A stretch of 64,000 nucleotides of DNA from Rhodospirillaceae bacterium. Lineage in GTDB: Bacteria > Pseudomonadota > Alphaproteobacteria > SHVZ01. Positions 1-53,479 of this stretch are shown here, piece after piece. The first letter of the stretch is position 1. Each line of letters starts with the position of its first letter. The notes under the pieces are model-generated. The model was not told where the DNA came from and ran no database searches. It saw only the letters and a list, made by a program, of their open reading frames with translations. The position numbers and the translations under genes are program-made. The stretch covers positions 47,097-111,096 of the forward strand of contig JAEULB010000159.1 of the NCBI GenBank assembly GCA_016792585.1. Reading direction: 5' to 3'.

Positions 1-211
1 CCAGGGCCTCGACGCGCCGGTCGAAGGCGAGACGCCGAGCCCGCTCGATCCGCCGAAGGGCTGTCCCTTCCACACCCGCTGCCCGCGCAAGGTAGGCACG
101 ATCTGCGAGGCCGCGCGTCCGCCAGAGCAGGTGACGCCCGCCGGCCATCGCATGGCCTGCCACATCCCGATGGCCGATCTCGCCCGCGTCCAGGAGAAAG
201 AGCTGACATGA
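1..211 (+). CDS. ABC transporter ATP-binding protein, C-terminal fragment (Dpp/Opp oligopeptide type); 5' end is outside the window
   Basis: The frame starting at nt 2 reads ...KGCPFHTRCPRKVGTICEAARPPEQVTPAGHRMACHIPMADLARVQEKELT*. That is the Cys/His-rich C-terminal extension typical of DppF/OppF-class ATPases. The stop overlaps the ATG at 208. Confidence 0.6.
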   Translation, partial: QGLDAPVEGETPSPLDPPKGCPFHTRCPRKVGTICEAARPPEQVTPAGHRMACHIPMADLARVQEKELT

Positions 212-1917: not shown

Positions 1918-1942
1918 GGTGATGAGGAGAAGTGACTTCCTA

Positions 1943-1973
1943 CCCCCACTCCCGCCGAAGGCGGGGGAGGGTT
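1943..1973. repeat. GC-rich imperfect hairpin (CTCCCGCC-GAA-GGCGGGGGAG) ending in a GGGGGAGGGTT core; a short copy of the REP-like element at 45939-46095
   Basis: It lies between the GGT1 stop (1917) and the most probable GGT2 start (1994). It shares the motif GGGGGAGGGTT with the intergenic element at 45945-45975. Confidence 0.45.
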
Positions 1974-1993
1974 CCGATGGAAGCGGGTCGGCC

Positions 1994-6516: not shown

Positions 6517-6535
6517 TCCGCTTCGAGGCGCCCGG

Positions 6536-6691
6536 CTATTCGGCCGGCGCGCCCGCCGGAAGATTCGCCGTTCCCTGTCGCTCGATCAGTTTGTCGCGCT
6601 CGACCATCCAGCCGCGGAAGATGACCACCATCCCGAGCATCACCAGGACGGTGAAGATCATGATCATGATCGGCAGGAATACCTCATGCAT
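6536..6691 (-). CDS. Hypothetical small membrane protein of 51 aa (MHEVFLPIMIMIFTVLVMLGMVVIFRGWMVERDKLIERQGTANLPAGAPAE); absent from the ORF track because it is under 60 aa
   Basis: Hand translation of the minus strand gives an ATG at 6691-6689 and a TAG at 6538-6536. An AGGGGG Shine-Dalgarno sits 6-11 nt upstream. The product has one clear TM segment. It lies at the 3' end of the minus-strand ABC importer operon. Confidence 0.35.
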   Translation of the reverse strand: MHEVFLPIMIMIFTVLVMLGMVVIFRGWMVERDKLIERQGTANLPAGAPAE

Positions 6692-8495: not shown

Positions 8496-9643
8496 TTGTT
8501 ATACGGATCGGCGGCGTCACGAAGCCCGTCGCCGAGGAAGTTGAGGGCAAGGACGGCGATCACCACCGCCGCCCCCGGCGCGAACAGCCAGGGCGCGGTC
8601 ACGATCGAGCGGATGTTCTGCGCCTCCCGCAGCAGCACGCCCCAGGAGATCACCGGCGGCTGCAGGCCGAGGCCAAGGAACGAAAGGGCCGTCTCGGCGA
8701 GGATCATCGCCGGGATCGCCAGCGTGACGCTGGCGACGATGTGGCTCATGAAGCTCGGCAGCATGTGGCGGAAGATGATGCGCATCTCGGACGCGCCGTC
8801 GAGGCGCGCCGCGGTCACGAAGTCCTCGGTGCGAAGCGAGAGGAAGCGGCCCCGGACGACGCGCGCGAGCTGGGCCCAGCCGATCAGCGAAAGGATCAGC
8901 GTGATCATGAAGTAGTGCAGCAGCGCCGGCCAGTTCTGCGGCAAGGCGGCGGCGAGCGCCAGCCAGATCGGGATCGTCGGCAGCGCCAGGATGAACTCGA
9001 TCACGCGCTGGATCACGAAATCGATCCGGCCGCCGTAATAGCCGGAGATGCCGCCGAGCAGGATGCCGATCAGCAGCGACATCGCCACGCCGACGAGGCC
9101 GATCGACATCGAGATCTGGCACCCCTTGACGATCCGGCTCCACACGTCGCGACCGAGGCGGTCGGAGCCCAGGAAGAAGATCTGCTGGCGCGGGTCCGTG
9201 CTGCCGATCAGATGGGTCTTCGAAGGGATCAGGCCGAAAAGGTGATAAGCGTAGCCCTCGGCGAAGAAGCGAAGGTCGATCCTCCGCGTCGGATCCTCGG
9301 TGTAGATCGGCGCCAGCGTGACCGGGTCGCGCTTCAGCACCATCTGCTTGACGTGCGGGCTGAAGACCGTGCTGCCGTCAGGCAGGGTCGCGAACAGGTG
9401 GAGAGGCTGCGGCGGATGGTAGACCGCACGCGCATTCTGCTGGCTCGGATCGGTGGTGGCGAAGAAATCCGGCACCGCCGCGACGATGTAGATCATCAGC
9501 GTGACGATGGCGCCGAGCATCGCCAGCTTGTGCTTGCGGAACGACCACCAGACCAGCTGCCACTGGGACGCGGTGGTGAAGCGCGAGGCGGCGGTCGGCG
9601 GGGTCGGCTGCTCCGGTGGCGCGGTCTCGGTCTTGGCGGTCAT
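8492..9643 (-). CDS. ABC transporter permease (DppC/OppC family)
   Basis: 383 aa, multi-TM. It carries the conserved permease segment ...AMILAETALSFLGLGLQPP.... Confidence 0.85.
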   Translation of the reverse strand: MTAKTETAPPEQPTPPTAASRFTTASQWQLVWWSFRKHKLAMLGAIVTLMIYIVAAVPDFFATTDPSQQNARAVYHPPQPLHLFATLPDGSTVFSPHVKQMVLKRDPVTLAPIYTEDPTRRIDLRFFAEGYAYHLFGLIPSKTHLIGSTDPRQQIFFLGSDRLGRDVWSRIVKGCQISMSIGLVGVAMSLLIGILLGGISGYYGGRIDFVIQRVIEFILALPTIPIWLALAAALPQNWPALLHYFMITLILSLIGWAQLARVVRGRFLSLRTEDFVTAARLDGASEMRIIFRHMLPSFMSHIVASVTLAIPAMILAETALSFLGLGLQPPVISWGVLLREAQNIRSIVTAPWLFAPGAAVVIAVLALNFLGDGLRDAADPYNK

Positions 9644-10629
9644 CAGTCGAACCGGATGCGCGGGTCGACCAGCGCCAGCAGGATGTCACTGAGCAGCGTG
9701 CCGACGAGGGTCAGCGTGCACATCAGCAGCACGAACGCGCCAGCGAGGTACATGTCCTGGCTCATCAGCGACTGCAGCAGCAGCGGTCCTGCGATCGGCA
9801 GGCTCAGCACCACGGCGACGATAAGCGCGCCGGAGATCAGGTTCGGCAGTAGCCAGCCGATGGTTGAGATGAACGGATTGATCGCGACCCTGACCGGATA
9901 CTTGAGCAGCAGACGGAACTCGGAAAGTCCCTTGGCGCGGGCGGTCGTGACGTAGGGTCGGTGCAGCTCGTCCAGCATGTTGGCGCGCATGATGCGGATC
10001 AGGCTGGCGGTGCCGTTGGTGGCAAGGATGACCACCGGCACCCACAGGTGCTCGACCAGGTTCTGAACCTTCCCCCAGCTCCAGGGCGCGGTCTGGTATT
10101 CCGGCGAGAACAGCCCACCGACATCGGCCCCGAACAGCACGACGGCGACGTACATCAGAACCAACGCCAGCAGGAAGGACGGAATCGCGAGCCCGAGGAA
10201 GCCGAGGAAGGTGAAGAAGTAGTCGCCGATCGAGTACTGGCGCACCGCCGAATAGACACCGATCGGGAACGCCAGCGCCCAGGTCATCAGCAGGGTCGAC
10301 GAGGTGACGACCAGGGTCAGCGCCATGCGCTCCCAGATCAGCTCGGAGACCGGCTGCTGCCACTCGAAGCTGAGGCCGAAATCGCCGCGCGTGACGATCC
10401 CGACGATCCACTTGAAGTATTGGACGATGAACGGCTGGTCGAGCCCGAAGCGCGTGCGCAGCTCGGCCGCCGCGGTGCGGTCGACGATCTCGTTCGAGGC
10501 CGCCAGGGTCGCAATGTAGGTGGTGACGTAGTCGCCGGGCGGAAGCTGGATCAGGACGAACGCAAGAAAGCTGACGGCGAACAGCGACGGAACCATCCAC
10601 AACAGACGCTTAATGATGAAGCCCAGCAT
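9643..10629 (-). CDS. ABC transporter permease (DppB/OppB family)
   Basis: The N-terminus is MLGFIIKRLLWMVPSLFAVSFLAFVLIQLPPGDYV. It is 328 aa, and its stop abuts the start of the next permease. Confidence 0.85.
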   Translation of the reverse strand: MLGFIIKRLLWMVPSLFAVSFLAFVLIQLPPGDYVTTYIATLAASNEIVDRTAAAELRTRFGLDQPFIVQYFKWIVGIVTRGDFGLSFEWQQPVSELIWERMALTLVVTSSTLLMTWALAFPIGVYSAVRQYSIGDYFFTFLGFLGLAIPSFLLALVLMYVAVVLFGADVGGLFSPEYQTAPWSWGKVQNLVEHLWVPVVILATNGTASLIRIMRANMLDELHRPYVTTARAKGLSEFRLLLKYPVRVAINPFISTIGWLLPNLISGALIVAVVLSLPIAGPLLLQSLMSQDMYLAGAFVLLMCTLTLVGTLLSDILLALVDPRIRFD

Positions 10630-10683
10630 CTAGGTGAAGTCCGGCGCGCCCCTCCCCGTCGGAACGGCGCGCCGGCAAGTCCT

Positions 10684-12642
10684 TTAGCTCGTGAAGAAGT
10701 ACTGCTGCGGCATCGACGGACCGGGATTCGGCCACGACCAGGCGCCGGGCATCTTGGCCGGAACGTTGCGGAGCCGGTTGTTGGCGATGCCGAACAGGTT
10801 CGGCGCGAGGCAGATGCCGATCGCATCGAAGGCGTCGGCGGCGAGATCGAGGATCTCCTTCATCAGCTCGCCCTGGCGCTTGACGTCGGAGATCGAACGC
10901 GCCTCGTCATAGAGCTTGGTGCGTCGCTTATGGTTCTCCGGCGGCTCGGCGCCTTCCTTGCCGTTGCTCGAGTACCAGACCGCCCACGGAATCGCGTAGC
11001 GCGAACCCTGCGGATGGATCGGCACCCAGTCGCGGGCGTCGATCAGCGGCTCGAGGCCGCCCGGCCCCTGCCAGACCGCGAAGTCGTGGTCGTTGTTGTC
11101 GCCGCGCGTGTAGTAGAGCGCGCGCTCGATCGTGTTGACCTTCATATCGACGCCGACCGCCGCCCAATGACGCTTGCACAGCTCGAGCGCGTCGACCTGG
11201 TCGGGATAGAGGGTCGGGATCACGTCGACGGCGAAGAACAGCTTCTGGCCGTCCGGGCGCAGTCGGAAGTTCTGGCCGTCGCGCTTCGAGAACCCGAGCT
11301 TGTCGAGCATCTCGTTCGACTTCTTAGGATCGAACTCGGTGTACTGGCGTGCGAACTTCGCATGATACCAGGGATGCGTCGGACGCGGCCCGAACTGCCA
11401 CGGCTCCGACTGCCCGAGATAGACGATGTCGATGATCTCCTGGCGGTTGATCGCGTGGGAGAGCGCGATGCGGAAGTCCTTGTTGGCGAAGATCGCCCTG
11501 AGCGCCGGGTCCTTGTGGGTGGCGTTGGGGTAGATCGACATCTGCTGGCTGTTGGCGTTGATCGTCTCGAACAGGCGGTAGTTCCCGCGCTGTGCCGACT
11601 GCGCCACCGTCGGCTTGTTCTGGAGCGTGTCGATGTGGCGCTCCTGGATGTCGATCTTGCCCGACACCACGTCGAGCATCAGCGACTCGACGTCCTGGGC
11701 GATGCTGAAGGTGATTCCGTCGACGTAGGGCAGCTGGTTGCCCTCGGTATCGACCTGCCAGAAATACGGATTCCGCTTCAGAACGACGCGGGTGGCGCCT
11801 CCGGTATAGGGCTCGGCGATGGTCCACGGATCGAGCGTCGGCTTCTCGGTGTTGCCCCAGCGCGAGGGGATCTCGATGTCGCCGCAGCGGAGCCGAAACA
11901 GGGCGCCCCAGTCCGGCACGTTCGCGGCCTTGGCGAGGTCGGCGACGTTGTTCGCATACTTCGGATGGAATTTCGAGCAGTAGTGCTTCGGGAAAAGCGT
12001 CGGATGCTGTCCCAACGGCGTCGCCATCTGCTGAAGGAACATGCCGTAGGGGCCGTCGAAGGTGAACTTGACGGTGACATCATCGACCTTCGAGACCTTG
12101 CACATCTTGCCGTTGATCGTCCAAAGCGCCGGCGGCGACTTGTAGAGCTCGGTGTTGGCGAGGCAGTCCTCGAACACGAAGACGATGTCGTCGGCGGTGA
12201 ACGGATGGCCGTCCGACCACTTCATGCCCGGGCGCAGATGGAAGGTGAACTCGTTGTTGCCGGCGTTCACGTCCCACTTGTGCGCGACGCCCGGCAGCAC
12301 GTCGGTGAACTCGAGGTTCCAGCGGGTCAGGCCCTGGTTGCCGACCATGCGCAGGATGCCGTTGTGGTCGGCCGAGCCGCGGAGCCCGCGGCGGATCTGG
12401 CCGCCGTAACGGCCGACGCGCTCGACCGGCTGAACCACCAGCGGGATCTTCGGCAGGCGCTCGGCGAGCGGCGGCAGCTTCTTGTCGGCGACCGCCTGAA
12501 CGAACTCCGGCGCTTCCTTGGCGGCGCCCTGAGCCAAGGCGCTCCACGACACCAGGCTGGTCGCTGCCATGCCGCCGGCGCCGGCCATCAGTTGGCGGCG
12601 AGTCAGCTTCAAGCCGCCGGAATTGTTGCGTTTGCGTGCCAT
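10684..12642 (-). CDS. ABC transporter substrate-binding protein, family 5 (peptide/nickel type), with a TAT/Sec signal
   Basis: The true start is the internal Met, MARKRNNSGGLKLTRRQLMAGAGGMAATSLVSWSALAQG, which contains a twin-Arg motif and is preceded by GGAGGAAACC. The long 915-aa track ORF is an open-frame artefact that extends over the uxuA-like gene. Confidence 0.8.
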   Translation of the reverse strand: MARKRNNSGGLKLTRRQLMAGAGGMAATSLVSWSALAQGAAKEAPEFVQAVADKKLPPLAERLPKIPLVVQPVERVGRYGGQIRRGLRGSADHNGILRMVGNQGLTRWNLEFTDVLPGVAHKWDVNAGNNEFTFHLRPGMKWSDGHPFTADDIVFVFEDCLANTELYKSPPALWTINGKMCKVSKVDDVTVKFTFDGPYGMFLQQMATPLGQHPTLFPKHYCSKFHPKYANNVADLAKAANVPDWGALFRLRCGDIEIPSRWGNTEKPTLDPWTIAEPYTGGATRVVLKRNPYFWQVDTEGNQLPYVDGITFSIAQDVESLMLDVVSGKIDIQERHIDTLQNKPTVAQSAQRGNYRLFETINANSQQMSIYPNATHKDPALRAIFANKDFRIALSHAINRQEIIDIVYLGQSEPWQFGPRPTHPWYHAKFARQYTEFDPKKSNEMLDKLGFSKRDGQNFRLRPDGQKLFFAVDVIPTLYPDQVDALELCKRHWAAVGVDMKVNTIERALYYTRGDNNDHDFAVWQGPGGLEPLIDARDWVPIHPQGSRYAIPWAVWYSSNGKEGAEPPENHKRRTKLYDEARSISDVKRQGELMKEILDLAADAFDAIGICLAPNLFGIANNRLRNVPAKMPGAWSWPNPGPSMPQQYFFTS

Positions 12643-12713
12643 GGTTTCCTCCGTTTCGCTGCGCCGCTTAAGCGCGTGTTTAAGGCCAGAATGAAGGTTG
12701 CTCAGTCGATCTG

Positions 12714-13718
12714 TCAAACCGCCCGTTTCCCGGTGTCGAGGGTCTGCAGCAATGCCGCGATGTAGCCGTAGCAATAGGCGAAGGCCACGCCCTGCGGGTC
12801 CTTGCCGTCGATGATCGGCACGTGGTCCGGCATGATCATGTACTTGTAGCCGACGTCCCGGTAGAGGCGCAGCGCCGCCGGCATGTCCATGTCGCCTTCG
12901 TCGGGGAAGGTCTCCATGAAGTCGAGCTTGCGCCCGCGGATGTTGCGGAAGTGCACGTTGAAGATCTTGCCGCGGCTGCCGAACCACTCGATCACCGCGC
13001 CGACCTCCTTCGCCGGGTCGTCGAGCATCTCGCCGATCGTGCCCTGGCAGAAGTTGAGGCCGTGATAGGGGCTTTCCTCGGTCTCGACGAAGCGCTTCAG
13101 GCCCTCGACCGTGCCGAGCACGCGCGTCACACCCTTCCAGCCGGGCGGCGTGTAGGGATCGTGCGGGTGGCAAGCAAGCCGGACCTTGTTGGCCGTCGCG
13201 ACCGGCACCACGCGCTTGAGGAAATACTCGATCCGCGCCCAGTTCTCCTCCGGGTCGACGACGCCGGCGATGCCGGGCTTCGCATCCTGGTCGGCCTCGG
13301 ACCAGCGGAAGGACTCGTTGCGCGAGCCGCCCCGGCCGATCGAGTGCTTCGTGCGCGGGATGCCGATGATGTTGAGATTGTACTTGGCCGCCGGAATGCC
13401 GGCCTTGGCCAATCGCTCGATCAGCGCGCAAATTGAATCGATCTGGCGGTCGCGGTCGGGGCCGGCCGTCAGCACGTCCGGGCTCTCCTGCTCCTCGATC
13501 GGCCGCGAGTTCATCGGCAGCTGAACCATGTCGAGGACGAGGCCGAAGCTTTCGACCGTCTCGCGATGGCGATTCAGGACGTCGAGCGACCAGTGATGCG
13601 GGTTGCCGTCGGGATCGGCGCAGACATGGCGCACGCCGAGCTGAGCCCAGACACGATAGTCGCTGTCGTCGCGGGCCTTGACCTGGGTCCCGAGATACAC
13701 CGCCCCTCCCCGATGCAT
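12714..13718 (-). CDS. uxuA: Mannonate dehydratase (UxuA)-like protein
   Basis: 334 aa from the internal Met MHRGG.... Three segments resemble E. coli UxuA. VATANKVRLACHPHDPYTPPG resembles VAEEVGVRMAVHPDDPPRP. IFNVHFRNIRG resembles IYFTHLRST. YKYMIMPDHVP resembles LIPMRPDHGH. The 557-aa track ORF is a GC-driven upstream extension. Confidence 0.65.
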   Translation of the reverse strand: MHRGGAVYLGTQVKARDDSDYRVWAQLGVRHVCADPDGNPHHWSLDVLNRHRETVESFGLVLDMVQLPMNSRPIEEQESPDVLTAGPDRDRQIDSICALIERLAKAGIPAAKYNLNIIGIPRTKHSIGRGGSRNESFRWSEADQDAKPGIAGVVDPEENWARIEYFLKRVVPVATANKVRLACHPHDPYTPPGWKGVTRVLGTVEGLKRFVETEESPYHGLNFCQGTIGEMLDDPAKEVGAVIEWFGSRGKIFNVHFRNIRGRKLDFMETFPDEGDMDMPAALRLYRDVGYKYMIMPDHVPIIDGKDPQGVAFAYCYGYIAALLQTLDTGKRAV

Positions 13719-16009: not shown

Positions 16010-17509
16010 ATGAACCGATGGTCGATATGGCTCAGGACCGCCGCGCTCGCGACGGTGCTCGCCGCCGGACAAGCCTACGCCGCCAAGGATGTGCTGGTTA
16101 TCGATCTCGCCAGCGAGCCCGCCTCGCTCGACCCGCATGTCCAGTGGAACCCGGACAGCTACTGGGTCTACCGCAACATCTTCGACAACGTCGTGACGCG
16201 CGACGACGACGGCAAGATCATCCCGCAGGTCGCGACCTCGTGGAAAGCGATCGACGACAAGACGATCGAGTTCGCGCTCCGCAGCGACATCACGTTCCAT
16301 GACGGCACGGCGATGACCGCCGACGACGTCGCCTTCACCGTCAAGCGCATCACCGATCCCGCCTTCAAGAGCCCGCAGCTCGACCAGTTCAACAAGATCG
16401 TCGCGACCGAGGTGGTCAATCCGACGACGATCCGCTTCAGGACCGACAGCGTCTATCCGGTGCTCATGGCGCAGCTGACCAAGCTCAGCGTCGTGCCGAA
16501 GGCGCATGTCGAGAAGGTCGGCAACGAAGCCTTCAACCAGGGCCCGGTCGGCAGCGGCGCCTACAAGTTCCAGTCGATCCAGCGCGGCGTGAAGACGACA
16601 CTGGTGCGCAACGACGCCTATTGGGGCCAGAAGGGCGCCTTCCCGACGGTCGAGTTCCGGCCGGTGCCTGACCAGGCGACCCGCATGGCCGATCTCCGCT
16701 CCGGCAAGGCCGACCTGATCGTCACGATCAACGCCGACCACGCCAAGGAGCTGAAGGCCGATGCCAATACCAAGGTGCTGAGCGTGCTCAGCGAGCGCGT
16801 CGCCTACTTCATGCTGAACTCGCTGACCGGCCCGACCTCGGACCTCCGTGTCCGCCAGGCGATCTCGCACGCGATCGACCGCCAGGGCATCATCGACGGC
16901 CTGATGGGCGGCTACGACAAGCCGGTCGCGACCATGCTGTCGCCCGTCCATGTCGGCTTCTCCGACGGCTTCAAGGGCCCGGTCTACGACCCCAACAAGG
17001 CGAAGGAGCTCTTGAAGGCCGTCGGCGCCCCAGCGCAAGGCACCTTCACCCTCTTCACCTCGCCGGTCTTCGACCAGCGCATCGTCGTCGCGATCCAGCA
17101 GATGCTGCGCGACGTCGGGCTCAAGGTCGAGATCACCTCCAGCGACTTCGCCAACTGGCTGAAGCGCGCCCAGGCCTCGCCGCAGGAGTTCGGCGAGGTC
17201 ACCTTCAGCCGCTGGTCCTGCGGCTGCCAGGACGCCGACGGCATCCTCTTCCCGCTCTACCACTCGAAGAGCCAGTGGGCGAAGTCGAACAACCCGGCGA
17301 TGGACGCCGAGCTCGATGCCGGCCGCTCAACCCTCGACGTGGCGAAGCGCACCCAGCACTACAAGAAGGCGAACGAGCTCGCCGAGGCGACCGTCCCGCT
17401 GGTGCCGCTCTACCAGGCCGCCATCCTCTACGGCGCCCGCAAGGAGCTGCGCTGGAAGCCGACGCCGAACGAGAGCTTCTTCATCAACCGCATCGGCTGG
17501 GACGGCTGA
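16010..17509 (+). CDS. ABC transporter substrate-binding protein, family 5; orphan, with no adjacent permeases
   Basis: The signal peptide is MNRWSIWLRTAALATVLAAGQAYA. The RBS is GGGAGG. The fold matches the family. Confidence 0.8.
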   Translation: MNRWSIWLRTAALATVLAAGQAYAAKDVLVIDLASEPASLDPHVQWNPDSYWVYRNIFDNVVTRDDDGKIIPQVATSWKAIDDKTIEFALRSDITFHDGTAMTADDVAFTVKRITDPAFKSPQLDQFNKIVATEVVNPTTIRFRTDSVYPVLMAQLTKLSVVPKAHVEKVGNEAFNQGPVGSGAYKFQSIQRGVKTTLVRNDAYWGQKGAFPTVEFRPVPDQATRMADLRSGKADLIVTINADHAKELKADANTKVLSVLSERVAYFMLNSLTGPTSDLRVRQAISHAIDRQGIIDGLMGGYDKPVATMLSPVHVGFSDGFKGPVYDPNKAKELLKAVGAPAQGTFTLFTSPVFDQRIVVAIQQMLRDVGLKVEITSSDFANWLKRAQASPQEFGEVTFSRWSCGCQDADGILFPLYHSKSQWAKSNNPAMDAELDAGRSTLDVAKRTQHYKKANELAEATVPLVPLYQAAILYGARKELRWKPTPNESFFINRIGWDG

Positions 17510-44459: not shown

Positions 44460-45938
44460 ATGGTCGCCGACTTCGCCCGACGCCGTGCCGAGACCACCCC
44501 CGACCGCATCGCCTTCGTCGAAGCGGCGAGCGGCCAGTCCTTCTCCTATCGCGAATTCGACGACCGGGCGGACCGGGCGGCGACTCTTCTCCGCGATCTC
44601 GGCGTTACCACGGGCGACCGCATCGCGACGCTGACGCTGAACGAGGTCGCCTTCTTCGAGATCCTGGTCGCGGCCGCGCGTATCGGCGCGATCATGGTGC
44701 CGCTCAACTGGCGGTTTGCCGCCGATGAGCTCGCCCCGATCCTTGCGGATTGCAGCCCCCGCTTGATCGTCCATGACGGCGCCAACGAGGCGATGGCGCG
44801 ACGGCTCTCCGCGCCCCGCCTGTCGCTCACCGACTACGAGGCGCGGATCGCGACGGCCTCTCCGTTCGCCCATCGCGCGGAGCCATGGCCCGCCGACGGC
44901 GTCTGGTATCTGCTCTACACCTCCGGCACGACCGGGAGGCCCAAGGCCGTGATCCAGACCTTCGGCATGGCTGAGGCCAATCACGTCAACCTGAGCCACG
45001 CGATCGGGCTCACCGCCGAAGACCGCACACTCAACTTCCTTCCCCTCTTCCACACGGCCGGCATCAACCTGCACACGCTGCCGACGCTGATATCTGGCGG
45101 CACGGTGACGATCTTCCCGAAGTTCGACGCCGACAGGGTGATCGCCGCGATCGGTTCCGGCCAGGTCACCTGCTTCTTCGGCGTGCCCGCGGTCTACCAG
45201 GCGCTCGCCCTGCACCCGCGCTTCGCATCGCTGGATCTCGGCCGCGCGCGCTCCTGGGCGTCCGGCGGCGCGCCGCTGCCGGAATCCCTGCTCCGCGCCT
45301 TTCTCGCACGCGGGGCGCGCGTCTGCGCCGGCTACGGCATGACCGAGACCGGGCCGACGCTCTGCCTGATGGATCCCGGCAGCGTCGAGGCGAAGGTCGG
45401 CTCGTCCGGCAAGGCACAAACCCTTTCGCAGGTCCGCATCGTCGACGATCTCGGGCGCGACGTTCCGACCGGCATGTCGGGCGAAGTGCTGGTGAAGGGC
45501 GCCAACGTCACGCCCGGCTACTGGAACAACGACGCTGCGACCCGCGCCGCCTTCACCGCCGACGGGTGGCTCAAGACCGGCGACGTCGGGCGCCTGGATG
45601 AAGACGGCTACGTCACCATCGTCGACCGCCTCAAGGACATGTTCATCTCCGGCGGCGAGAACGTCTATCCGGCCGAGGTCGAACGCGCGCTCCTCGCCCA
45701 TCCCGACGTGCTCGAGGCCGCCGTGATCGGCGTCGCCGACGAACGCTGGGGCGAGGTCGGTCGCGCCTTCGTCGTGCCTCGGGAGAACGCGCGGCCGGAG
45801 CCGGAGCGGCTCCGCGCCTTCTGCCGCGACCGGATTGCCGGATACAAGGTGCCGCAGACGATCCTGGTCGTCGGCGACCTGCCACGCACCGCCGCCGGCA
45901 AGGTGCAGAAGCACCTGCTGCGGGTGCGTACCGACTGA
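44460..45938 (+). CDS. AMP-dependent acyl-CoA synthetase/ligase
   Basis: AMP-binding motif LLYTSGTTGRPKAV. 492 aa. Confidence 0.85.
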   Translation: MVADFARRRAETTPDRIAFVEAASGQSFSYREFDDRADRAATLLRDLGVTTGDRIATLTLNEVAFFEILVAAARIGAIMVPLNWRFAADELAPILADCSPRLIVHDGANEAMARRLSAPRLSLTDYEARIATASPFAHRAEPWPADGVWYLLYTSGTTGRPKAVIQTFGMAEANHVNLSHAIGLTAEDRTLNFLPLFHTAGINLHTLPTLISGGTVTIFPKFDADRVIAAIGSGQVTCFFGVPAVYQALALHPRFASLDLGRARSWASGGAPLPESLLRAFLARGARVCAGYGMTETGPTLCLMDPGSVEAKVGSSGKAQTLSQVRIVDDLGRDVPTGMSGEVLVKGANVTPGYWNNDAATRAAFTADGWLKTGDVGRLDEDGYVTIVDRLKDMFISGGENVYPAEVERALLAHPDVLEAAVIGVADERWGEVGRAFVVPRENARPEPERLRAFCRDRIAGYKVPQTILVVGDLPRTAAGKVQKHLLRVRTD

Positions 45939-46095
45939 GGTCGTCCCCCCTCTTCCGGCAAAGCCGGGGGGAGGGTTGGGGTGGGGGCGAGCGAAGCGAG
46001 GAATGGATCTAAAGAACTCAGCGACGGAAACCTCGCGACGCCTTGCATCGCTCGCCCCACCCTGCCCTCCCCCGCGTACGACGCGGGAGAGGGTT
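45939..46095. repeat. REP/RIME-like composite intergenic palindromic element: two GC-rich terminal hairpins plus a long internal inverted repeat
   Basis: Hairpin B lies at 45945-45975 (CCCCCCTCTTCCGGC..GCCGGGGGGAGGG). Hairpin C lies at 46065-46093 (CCCTCCCCCGCG-TACGA-CGCGGGAGAGGG), 3 nt before the M20 peptidase stop. The segments GGGAGGGTTGGGGTGGGGGCGAGCGA (about 45970-45995) and TCGCTCGCCCCACCCTGCCCTCCC (about 46049-46072) are near reverse complements of each other. Confidence 0.6.
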
Positions 46096-47310
46096 CTACG
46101 AGACCAGCAAATCCCGTAGCGTCAGCGCGATCACCTTGGTCGCCGCAACGACGTCGTCGAGCTTCACGCGCTCGTCGGCGCGATGCGCGTTGGCTTCCAG
46201 GATCGTGCGCGGGCCGGCGCCGTAGAGGATCGTCGGTATCCCCTGCTCGGCGTAGTGACGGGCGTCGGTGTAGAGCGGCACGCCGGTGACGGGGATCGCC
46301 TCGGCCAGGATTTCGGTCGCGCGGCGCGCCAGCGTCTCGGCCATCTTGCGGCTGGCATCGCTCGCGGTCAGCGGGCGCGCGAGAAGGACACACCGGATCT
46401 CGACCGAAGCGCCAGCAACCGAAACCGCCTTGGCGATGACGTCGCGCAGCTCGGCTTCGACCTCAGCCGGATTCTCTTCCGGGATCATCCGCCGGTCGAG
46501 GCGCAGCGTCACCGCGTCCGGCACGACATTGGTGTTGATGCCGCCCTTGATCAGGCCGACCGTCATCTGCGCGGCACCGATGCCGGGCGTCTTCGAAACG
46601 CGCGAAGCAAGCCCCTTGCGCCAGGCATAGAGCGCCTGGAGCACCTGGCTCGCCGCTTCCAGCGCGTCGATGCCGGTCGAGGGCGATGCGGCATGGGCCG
46701 AGCGTCCGCGCAAAGTCACTTCCAGATGCAGGCAGCCGTTATGGGCCGCGACCACCGCGTAGGAGAAGCCGGCGCAGATCACCATGTCGGGCTTCGAGAG
46801 GCCGGCTTTCAAGAGATGGCCGGGACCGATCTCGCCGCCGACCTCCTCGTCGTAGGTGAAGTGCAGCTCGACCGTGCCGCGCGTCGGCTTGACGGTTTCC
46901 AGCGCCATCAGCGCGAAAGCGTATGTGGCGAAGTCCGACTTCGAAACCGCAGCGCCGCGGCCGTACATCCAGCCGTCGACCACCTCGGCGCCGTATGGAT
47001 CGCGGGTCCAGCCCTCGCCAGGCGGCACCACATCGCCATGGGCATTGAGCGCGACGGTCGGGCCTGGCCCGAACTTCCGCCGGACGATCAGGTTGGCGGC
47101 ACTCTTCATACCGTTCGCGGCCACCAGATCAGCCGGGACCGGATGGGACTCGACCTTGAGCCCGAGGCCTTCGAGCAGTGCCGCCGCCTTGGCCGCCGCA
47201 CCGGCGAGGTCGCCCGGCGGATTGTCGGACGGAATGCGCACGAGCTCGGCCAGGAACCGCTCCTGGCGCGTCCGGTTTGCATCGATAAAACCCAGTATTT
47301 CTGACGTCAT
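46096..47310 (-). CDS. M20-family metallopeptidase (ArgE/DapE/carboxypeptidase G2-like)
   Basis: Metal-binding regions ALNAHGDVVPPGEGW and YDEEVGG are present. The start is taken at MTSEILGFIDAN, with a GAAGGGGTGG RBS. Confidence 0.75.
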   Translation of the reverse strand: MTSEILGFIDANRTRQERFLAELVRIPSDNPPGDLAGAAAKAAALLEGLGLKVESHPVPADLVAANGMKSAANLIVRRKFGPGPTVALNAHGDVVPPGEGWTRDPYGAEVVDGWMYGRGAAVSKSDFATYAFALMALETVKPTRGTVELHFTYDEEVGGEIGPGHLLKAGLSKPDMVICAGFSYAVVAAHNGCLHLEVTLRGRSAHAASPSTGIDALEAASQVLQALYAWRKGLASRVSKTPGIGAAQMTVGLIKGGINTNVVPDAVTLRLDRRMIPEENPAEVEAELRDVIAKAVSVAGASVEIRCVLLARPLTASDASRKMAETLARRATEILAEAIPVTGVPLYTDARHYAEQGIPTILYGAGPRTILEANAHRADERVKLDDVVAATKVIALTLRDLLVS

Positions 47311-47472
47311 GACCACCCCTTCATGAGCCCGCCGCCCCAATAGCACATCCGGCGCGAGACCCGTCACGGAGCCGTGTTTCCAGGACGGACGTTCCCGATT
47401 GCCAAGCCTTTGAGAGGCATCATAGGCTTTCCTCATTCCTTATCATTCTTGTCCCTAGGGGAGGTTCGCATC

Positions 47473-53075: not shown

Positions 53076-53479
53076 GGGTCGACCGCGTACTTCTTGAGGT
53101 CTTCGAGCGAGCAATAGGCGAGCGCCCCTTCATGCGTCGCGCGCAGGACGACCTTCGGCGCGCGGCCGGCCTCCAGCGCCTCCTGCCAGCGCGGGGCGCA
53201 GAGGCACCATCGGTCGCCAGGCTTGAGTCCGGCGAAGCCGTATTGCGGATAGGGCGTCGAAAGGTCGTTGCCCACGCTTCTCGAATATTCCAGGAACTCG
53301 GCCGTGGTCACGCAGCAGACCGTGTGGCTGCCGATATCCTCGGGCGAGGTGTCGCAGCAGCCGTTGCGGAAGAAGCCGGTCACGGGATCGAGCGAGCAAT
53401 CTTCGAGCTTGCCACCGAGCACGTTCCTGGAAGGGCGGCGTCCGCCGCCCCCTCCCCATCTTTGATCGTCTAGTGGCAT
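53072..53479 (-). CDS. DUF2237 family protein (Cys-rich, uncharacterized)
   Basis: 135 aa. The conserved segments are CSLDPVTGFFRNGCC, DIGSHTVC and GDRWCLCAPRWQEA. Confidence 0.6.
   Translation of the reverse strand: MPLDDQRWGGGGGRRPSRNVLGGKLEDCSLDPVTGFFRNGCCDTSPEDIGSHTVCCVTTAEFLEYSRSVGNDLSTPYPQYGFAGLKPGDRWCLCAPRWQEALEAGRAPKVVLRATHEGALAYCSLEDLKKYAVDP

Follow-up and report, generated by a model that had tools for sequence, protein, structure and literature searches.

A composite palindrome between two convergent genes

The stretch analyzed here, 64,000 bp of contig JAEULB010000159.1 from a Rhodospirillaceae bacterium (hereafter the window), carries a composite palindromic repeat between two convergent genes coding for an acyl-CoA synthetase (ACS) and an M20 deacylase (Table 1). 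Homologs of the M20 protein are 403 amino acids long, which places the true start of its gene probably near position 47307. As a sequence-only reading of the window had noted, a 157-bp gap separates the two open reading frames (ORFs), whose ends lie at 45938 and 46096. The palindrome occupies 156 bp of this gap and consists of two inverted arms of approximately 60 nt each. The same reading had placed one hairpin behind each stop codon, and both were found: the ACS-side hairpin starts 7 nt past the ACS stop and the peptidase-side hairpin ends 2 nt, rather than the proposed 3 nt, from the M20 stop. It had also described a long internal inverted repeat formed by two inverted copies of one unit, and a repeat search recovered these arms (45965–45986/46055–46076 and 45984–46001/46041–46058) together with a terminal hairpin (46065–46077/46081–46093). 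The predicted stable hairpins were likewise returned when the whole region was folded as plus-strand RNA (−98.7 kcal/mol, z −5.5 against shuffles), minus-strand RNA (z −4.0) or single-stranded DNA (ssDNA; −48.6 kcal/mol, z −4.45).

The ACS-side (alpha) and peptidase-side (beta) arms share a general order. A pyrimidine (Y) arm, made of CCCTCTCCC and a variable G+C top, is followed by a loop of 3–5 nt, a purine (R) arm ending in GGGGGAGGG, a second loop of 2–3 nt, a G/T arm (GGGTGGGGG) and a conserved box (GCGAGCGAAGCGAGG). In the window, the left hairpin CCGGC-aaa-GCCGG is lengthened by CCCCCCTC (C-rich) and GGGGGGAGGG (G-rich), and the alpha arm reads CCCCCCTC..-loop-..GGGGGGAGGG-TT-GGGGTGGGGG. 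The beta arm reads CCCTCTCCCGCG-loop-CGCGGGGGAGGG-CA-GGGTGGGG on the minus strand, and its hairpin folds as ssDNA with −16.2 kcal/mol (z −2.75). Alpha arms have the outer end TCGTG and the second loop TT. Their beta partners have the outer end TCGGAA, the second loop CA and an extra small hairpin within the box. The segment GGGGGAGGG-NN-GGGTGGGG is a purine arm followed by its mirror-image third strand and not a mere tail.

An nhmmer profile built from 24 related arms found exactly three sites in the window: the two arms of the composite element (45941–46000, plus strand, E 4e-13; 46097–46042, minus strand, E 5e-13) and a weaker match at 1937–1978 (plus strand, E 1e-3). The third site is the shorter copy that the sequence-only reading had reported in the GGT1-GGT2 spacer. 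The core GGGGGAGGGTT, with at most one mismatch, occurred 5 times compared with 1.06 expected.

Table 1. Coordinates of the composite element, its parts and flanks, and the second insertion in the window.
Feature	Position	Strand	Description
Acyl-CoA synthetase gene (AMP-binding family)	44460..45938	+	flanking gene; ends in TGA
Left junction CTGAG	45935..45939	+	includes the ACS stop TGA; resembles empty-site CTAAG, a putative rather than demonstrated target duplication
Composite element	45940..46095	.	156 bp; alpha arm, variable centre and inverted beta arm
Alpha-arm hairpin	45945..45975	+	Y arm CCCCCCTCTTCCGGC, AAA loop, R arm GCCGGGGGGAGGG; top covaries among copies
Alpha-arm third-strand (reverse-Hoogsteen, RH) domain	45978..45987	+	GGGGTGGGGG after the TT loop; mirror of the R arm
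Conserved box	45986..46001	+	GGCGAGCGAAGCGAGG; common to Sphingomonadales copies and some viral contigs
Variable centre	46002..46030	.	conserved in the closest copies only (L189, L248, L240, L157)
Beta-arm box	46031..46056	-	reverse complement GGCGAGCGATGCAAGGCGTCGCGAGG; contains the small insert seen in beta arms generally
Beta-arm RH domain	46055..46062	-	GGGTGGGG on the minus strand; CA between RH domain and R arm
Beta-arm hairpin	46065..46093	-	minus strand CCCTCTCCCGCG, TCGTA loop, CGCGGGGGAGGG
M20 deacylase gene (ArgE/DapE family)	46096..47436	-	flanking gene; ORF as listed, terminal CTA
Right junction CTACG	46096..46100	+	includes the M20 stop (minus-strand TAG, here CTA); resembles empty-site CTAAG, putative
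GGT1-GGT2 insertion, ~77 bp	1918..1993	+	solo unit CCCCCACTCCCGCC-gaa-GGCGGGGGAGGG-TTCCGA (1943–1977) without third-strand domain

Insertion into overlapping gene ends

Look-ups of the exact proteins of the two flanking ORFs returned no entry. Orthologous ACS/M20 loci, reached via homologs of the M20 protein, are empty in two relatives: L006, from the metagenome-assembled genome (MAG) GCA_041906305.1 (90% amino acid identity), and L008, from a European Nucleotide Archive (ENA) contig (92%). In both, the ends of the convergent genes share 4 nt (CTAG and CTAA, respectively), with no DNA between them. The element was inserted in the lineage of the window into this 4-nt overlap of convergent stop codons, and the copy at 45940–46095 is a recent insertion. 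The MAG with the empty site has at least five elements of its own on three other contigs (L136, L157, L204, L206).

Homologs of GGT1 led us to the orthologous GGT1-GGT2 junctions. In L254 (same MAG and contig as L006, 95% amino acid identity) and L256, the two genes overlap in the sequence TGATG; the junction in the window has 77 extra bases compared with these overlaps, hairpin included. By this comparison, the solo unit at this site is an insertion as well. The converse case was found after a PrpD-like gene: L254 has a solo hairpin in the convergent gap (CCGCCCTCCCCCG-tctcgcc-GCGGGAGAGGGCG, 16212–16268) where the window has 20 unrelated bases (6519–6538). These opposite cases of presence and absence indicate that units have been gained or lost in both lineages. 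The bases after the L254 solo hairpin (CGATCGAGC) also follow the BoxC pair between hrpB and mrcB of E. coli (L253, approximately 325–345), either by coincidence or as a shared flank.

Both insertions in the window are at gene junctions of zero length and left working stop and start codons in place. At the ACS/M20 site, the left end reads CTGAG and the right end CTACG, compared with CTAAG in the empty site, the differences being a stop-to-stop and a synonymous serine change. At the GGT site, ATGAGG is present twice (1922–1927 and 1994–1999). These junction repeats may be short target duplications or simply what selection allows.

A different insertion, 1.35 kb long, occupies the orthologous ACS/M20 junction in a third relative, L001 (GCA_964482145.1, 11213–12561). 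It encodes a 356-amino acid RCC1-repeat protein (Pfam RCC1, 7 repeats) and keeps a CTAR-G copy on each side (CTAAG ... CCTAGG). With a second insertion at the same junction and these copies kept, the 4-nt overlap of stop codons looks like an insertion hot spot. A metagenome scan returned no match to the 3′ end of the window's own ACS gene.

A dispersed and mosaic family

The strict arm pattern GGGAGGG N2-5 GGGTGGG N1-2 CGAGCGA matched at least 118 genome stretches, approximately six of which were judged to be chance matches, and three viral contigs. Among the genome matches listed, most are from Sphingomonadales and make up subfamily A. Subfamily B, to which the window belongs, is found in unclassified alphaproteobacterial MAGs, including GCA_041906305.1. 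A looser version of the unit pattern matched more than 120 IMG/VR contigs, most of them with an upstream C-rich arm. Furthermore, a blastn search of 72,556 plasmids (PLSDB) gave matches only in Sphingobium and Azospirillum, with the same layout and in unannotated intergenic DNA.

Copies that match the full 157 bp, centre included, were found at 85% (L189), 84% (L248), 83% (L240 and L157) and 78% (L136). Full-length copies lie at unrelated loci in related MAGs and have the defined ends TCGTG...TTCCGA, which bears out the proposal of the sequence-only reading that the gap holds one member of a dispersed family. When 12 of them are aligned, similarity runs from (G)TCGTG or (G)TCGTGCCCCCTCTCCCG to CGGGAGAGGGTTCCGA or GGGTTCCGA and the flanks are unrelated. 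A regular expression for the partner arm called too many solo units; on inspection, many of these were pairs with divergent right arms.

The repeat family is a mosaic. One sphingomonad sub-type (L150, L171, L179, L194, L202, L205, L219 and L233, from Sphingopyxis and relatives) has a conserved module of approximately 35 nt, CTGCGACTAGCGAACAAGTTCGCAAGTCTCGCTG, nested in the right arm between its C-tail and its hairpin. Many other subfamily A centres have a hairpin of the GGCATCGAGCC type. Many viral or prophage contigs from IMG/VR (among loci L012–L131) carry the unit AAAAAAGCCCCTCCCC-ttca-GGGGAGGGG-TT-GGGGTGGGG. On the C strand this viral unit is a hairpin followed by a T run, the canonical shape of an intrinsic terminator, a shape that the window's subfamily lacks.

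Placement behind stop codons

Gene calls around the copies came from a codon log-likelihood model that had been trained on these loci and that got both window flanks right. Both flanks were called for 78 arm anchors; 27 of these are in convergent, 44 in tandem and only 7 in divergent gaps. The upstream gene points at the arm in 60 cases, and in 35 of these its stop codon lies about −7 to +12 nt from the hairpin start, a position that is approximate to within a few nucleotides. Copies are placed right behind stop codons and avoid divergent promoter gaps.

Each of the two convergent mRNAs at the ACS/M20 locus would have a stop codon, then a strong hairpin and then a G-rich tail. Such a 3′ stem-loop might, from its predicted structure, slow 3′ exonucleases on both transcripts. 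This arrangement and the preference of the family as a whole for gene 3′ ends would also suit a bidirectional terminator or mRNA-stabilizing structure that evolved locally and never moved. However, near-identical sister copies at unrelated loci refute such an origin, and relatives manage with overlapping stops and no structure at all. Nor did the bidirectional terminator proposed in the sequence-only reading find support: we found no terminator-like site in 45600–46400 and no U tract, the hairpins being followed by G-rich tails. No sigma-70-like promoter was found at the element. Holder et al. (2015, PMC4666352), citing Maher's group, likewise report that PIT/BoxC of E. coli acts neither as a promoter nor as a terminator. 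An immobile structure of local origin is thus extremely unlikely. Searches of Rfam with the window and 12 carrier loci returned no family at the gathering threshold and only generic matches to miRNA-precursor hairpins below it.

Covariation of the hairpin and its mirror strand

The hairpin tops come in at least nine different versions among the copies and are always complementary. Their inner segments have 3.7 consecutive pairs, compared with 0.66 (maximum 1.10) in 1000 shuffles. The third strand follows a different rule. Of 176 asymmetric units tallied, 170 have a third strand that is the mirror image of the purine arm, 3 have a direct copy and 3 are symmetric, and the triad register, with G opposite G and T or A opposite A, is kept. 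Because such a mirror image is a poor pairing partner for the pyrimidine arm, the third strand is not an alternative hairpin.

With G(a1)AG(a2) denoting the purine arm and G(b1)TG(b2) the G/T arm, subfamily A has the type (3,4 | 4-5,3) and subfamily B the type (5,3 | 3-4,5). The two have opposite asymmetries that flip concordantly in both strands, and the rarer types (3,5 | 5,3) and (2,4 | 4,2) also obey the mirror rule. A comparable change separates the window from E. coli, whose R and RH arms are GGGAGAGGG/GGGTGAGGG compared with GGGGGAGGG/GGGTGGGGG here. Both arms have undergone the same A-to-G change while the pyrimidine arm keeps its T, and such a joint change is what triad pairing would predict. 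These sequence patterns show that hairpin and mirror strand have been kept by compensatory change.

Relationship to BoxC/PIT and other repeats

The closest known family, missed in the sequence-only reading, is BoxC/PIT of E. coli. It is reportedly the subject of papers by Bergler from 1992 and by Hoyne and Maher from 2000. Full-text literature searches with the core sequences of the element gave no relevant paper. Both arms of the window have the BoxC/PIT order of Y arm (CCCTCTCCC), loop, R arm, 2–3 nt loop and mirror G/T arm. The same units, also named TM_ECO, are described as a class II purine-motif intrastrand triplex motif with the pattern CCCTCNCCC N3-6 GGGNGAGGG N3 GGGNGAGGG (Holder et al., 2015, PMC4666352). 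They number 3610 copies in 262 proteobacterial genomes, are always intergenic and come in two types with TTA or CCG as the second loop; 5 of the 23 copies in strain MG1655 are inverted pairs of types A and B (PMC4666352). TM_ECO units show no link to mobile-element genes and their loci are more variable between strains (PMC4666352). The window family is likewise intergenic, dispersed and multi-copy, occurs as singles or inverted pairs of two arm types, and differs in presence between close relatives, and no associated transposase was found for it. Second loops are TTA and CCG in E. coli pairs, TT and CA in the window, and CCG and TTA in the Azospirillum units that we retrieved, as in TM_ECO. 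The hrpB-mrcB BoxC pair of E. coli even has the same tails-in arrangement, 12 nt past the hrpB stop. Azospirillum, Caulobacter, Bradyrhizobium and several sphingomonads are in the supplementary TM_ECO list (PMC4666352).

Elements of this kind were thus already known from E. coli and as common in Alphaproteobacteria; what is new here is the polarised insertion into gene overlaps and the mirror covariation. We think that the element is probably a non-coding, non-autonomous dispersed repeat, an inverted heterodimer (alpha plus beta) of BoxC/PIT/TM_ECO-like units that spreads selfishly. Each unit is a G+C-rich homopyrimidine/homopurine hairpin, then a short loop and a G/T strand in mirror order to the purine arm. 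With this layout, ssDNA could adopt a class II purine-motif intrastrand triplex by folding back on itself, and the two arms jointly could form a hairpin of approximately 150 nt or a cruciform. As a structure-defined element, it may spread via a single-stranded or structure-recognized intermediate with the help of an enzyme acting in trans, not evidently a RAYT, and be tolerated where genes and promoters stay unbroken. In cis, it would give both convergent mRNAs a stable 3′ stem-loop as a possible shield against 3′ exonucleases. It may also be a trouble spot for replication and recombination, with no role as a canonical terminator.

Several results weigh against this explanation. A tblastn search with E. 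coli RayT found no homolog in 2.07 Mb around at least 118 copies and the window. No recurrent neighbor gene emerged from 2,894 ORFs within 1.5 kb of copies, which clustered only as orthologous loci, and the 12 aligned copies have no consistent target-site duplication. The literal TM_ECO pattern fails in two respects: the first loop exceeds 6 nt once the extra stem is counted, compared with 3–6 nt, and the third strand is GGGTGGGGG here but GGGNGAGGG in TM_ECO. Two subfamilies contribute most of the mirror and covariation counts, which therefore stand for few independent events. Moreover, the TM_ECO triplex formed in vitro, with its circular dichroism (CD) and nuclear magnetic resonance (NMR) signatures, but was undetected in vivo (PMC4666352), and triplex formation in the arms of the window is predicted from their layout. 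Finally, the same G strand fits a G-quadruplex motif (in the alpha arm, the R arm plus RH domain at 45966–45987).

The last point raises the question of which fold is selected. Instead of a triplex, a G-quadruplex could compete with the hairpin, either on the DNA or in the 3′ untranslated regions of the two mRNAs. Each arm has four runs of at least three G with loops of 1–2 nt, and the only two short-loop motifs of this type in the window are both inside the element, although this is fewer than the mean of 3.06 in block-shuffled sequence. G-quadruplexes can also form in RNA, whereas purine-motif triplexes are stated not to (PMC4666352), and as an alternative fold a quadruplex would be plausible above all there. 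However, a quadruplex needs neither a third strand that mirrors the purine arm, nor a T opposite A, nor a joint A-to-G change in the R and RH arms. Furthermore, a strong hairpin ties up two of the four G runs, and the relative in E. coli gave the CD and NMR signatures of a triplex (PMC4666352). We regard a quadruplex as the selected fold as decidedly improbable.

Beyond the departures from the literal pattern, the window family differs from TM_ECO in its longer hairpin, whose added G+C top is variable and covaries, and in having a conserved box (GCGAGCGAAGCGAG) and an inner region of 80 nt that make it a discrete element of approximately 155 bp with defined ends. It also favors the 3′ ends of genes, whereas TM_ECO units of E. 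coli are reported more often upstream of ORFs. Because the literal pattern fails and the extra stem top, box and 155-bp composite are added to it, the sequence is best described as a variant of BoxC/PIT and not as TM_ECO itself.

Other families resemble the element in part. REP/BIME and REPIN-RAYT repeats of gamma-Proteobacteria are also short, imperfect, dispersed intergenic palindromes that often occur as inverted doublets folding into one long hairpin, as here. They are found behind genes and within convergent gaps, with loops and stems that vary by compensatory change. However, REPs have no third-strand domain, and the window arms are longer (approximately 60 nt) and lack the GTAG tag. The CGTC REPs of Alphaproteobacteria have stems of 8–9 bp that start with A/T pairs, loops of 4–5 nt and CCA tails (Di Nocera et al., 2013, PMC3733652). 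They are mostly head-to-head dimers, often heterodimers, that favor unidirectional and convergent gaps and have no known transposase of their own (PMC3733652). Hosts, dimers and gap preference are similar, and the left end of the window element reads CGTC (45942–45945), the family consensus being CGTG. We rejected membership, since the stem here is C/G-only (homopolymer-like), longer and followed by a mirror G/T strand, with no CCA tail. The Rhizobium-specific intergenic mosaic elements RIME1 and RIME2 are alphaproteobacterial palindrome mosaics that are alike by description only; no sequence relation was shown, and the plasmid blastn search gave no match in Rhizobium or Sinorhizobium. Thus, the REP-like label of the sequence-only reading is acceptable as an analogy for a dispersed, intergenic palindrome with a REP/BIME-like layout downstream of genes, but its RAYT part and its RIME label are unsupported.

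Termini and candidate mobilizers

The idea, raised in the sequence-only reading, that the element is moved by a RAYT (Y1 HUH transposase) whose gene lies elsewhere, here as a REPIN or REP doublet, draws on the pair of inverted palindromic units with their joint long hairpin, on the dispersal of intergenic copies behind stop codons and on the lack of a consistent target duplication, which fits IS200/IS605-type chemistry. Yet no RayT-like ORF was found around the copies, as described above, or on the Sphingomonad and Azospirillum plasmids of PLSDB, even though such plasmids carry the repeat. The matches in PLSDB were gamma-proteobacterial, beta-proteobacterial, cyanobacterial and similar only. 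The termini, TCGTG and TCGGAA, lack the GTAG tag, and BoxC/TM_ECO units are reported without association to mobile-element genes (PMC4666352). Mobilization by RAYT is, on this evidence, quite unlikely.

The aligned copies have defined ends and terminal inverted repeats (TCGTG.../...CGA) that are long and imperfect, as in miniature inverted-repeat transposable elements (MITEs) such as Correia/NEMIS, ERIC/IRU and RUP, which are intergenic, 100–200 bp long and can fold into one RNA hairpin. As a MITE, the element would be a deletion derivative of an insertion sequence (IS), moved by a DDE transposase with a short target duplication. The micro-duplications at the two junctions compared with empty sites agree with this, as does the rare cargo between inverted arms described below. 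However, the duplications are imperfect and would be demanded anyway by selection to keep stop and start codons, and no flanking direct repeat is shared among the aligned copies. In addition, we found neither a parent IS nor a transposase gene between or beside the arms in the 118 loci listed, and solo hairpin units without long arms also come and go. We consider a classical MITE rather unlikely.

Two loci have DNA between inverted arms. In L226 (1–445), a gene with a DUF559 domain (Vsr-like endonuclease fold; Pfam E 4e-38) lies between arms at 1–51 (plus strand) and 445–392 (minus strand). We rejected DUF559 as a partner, this being the sole case and no such gene lying near the other copies examined. 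In L144 (3432–4024), two inverted alpha arms surround approximately 480 bp with a 153-amino acid ORF that has no Pfam match.

Returning to the selfish BoxC/PIT-like repeat, a more specific reading, which we offer tentatively and hold to be doubtful, is that the triplex itself is selected in vivo. The third strand is kept as a mirror across E. coli, Sphingomonadales and this uncultured alphaproteobacterium, and the triplex could be, for example, the recognized form of a single-stranded intermediate of transposition or replication. Placement would then be precise at stop-codon junctions, even in overlaps of 1–4 nt, with both frames restored and no dedicated transposase, and the invariant box GCGAGCGAAGCGAG might be a recognition site for a protein or nucleic acid.

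BoxC/PIT motifs have been known for 30 years, and their function and means of spread are still unfound. The lineage of the window offers clean, polarised insertions into junctions that overlap in relatives at 90–95% protein identity, together with one converse case. Covariation of the third strand across lineages could show whether triplex geometry matters in cells and could guide the search for whatever moves these elements. Such elements also give rise to spurious ORFs and to assembly and annotation trouble in high-GC Alphaproteobacteria, and they may mark recombination-prone sites.

Other hairpins and genome labels

We also identified two further hairpins in the window. One, GGGCGGCG-tcc-GCCGCCC beside CCCTCCCC (53433–53460), is conserved at the orthologous position in L008 (4585–4625) and is probably an ordinary intergenic stem-loop and not a member of the family. 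The other, an unrelated hairpin of GGCGCGCC, 15 nt and GGCGCGCC with CCCCTCCCC in its loop (10644–10677), lies between two minus-strand ORFs (9643–10629 and 10684–13431).

Six of the loci (L138, L153, L159, L193, L212 and L256) come from a MAG titled 'Asaia bogorensis' (CAMDFP01, GCA_945897335.1). This MAG has 87% GGT1 identity and synteny with the unclassified alphaproteobacterial lineage of the window and has the subfamily B repeat in common with it, and its species label looks doubtful.

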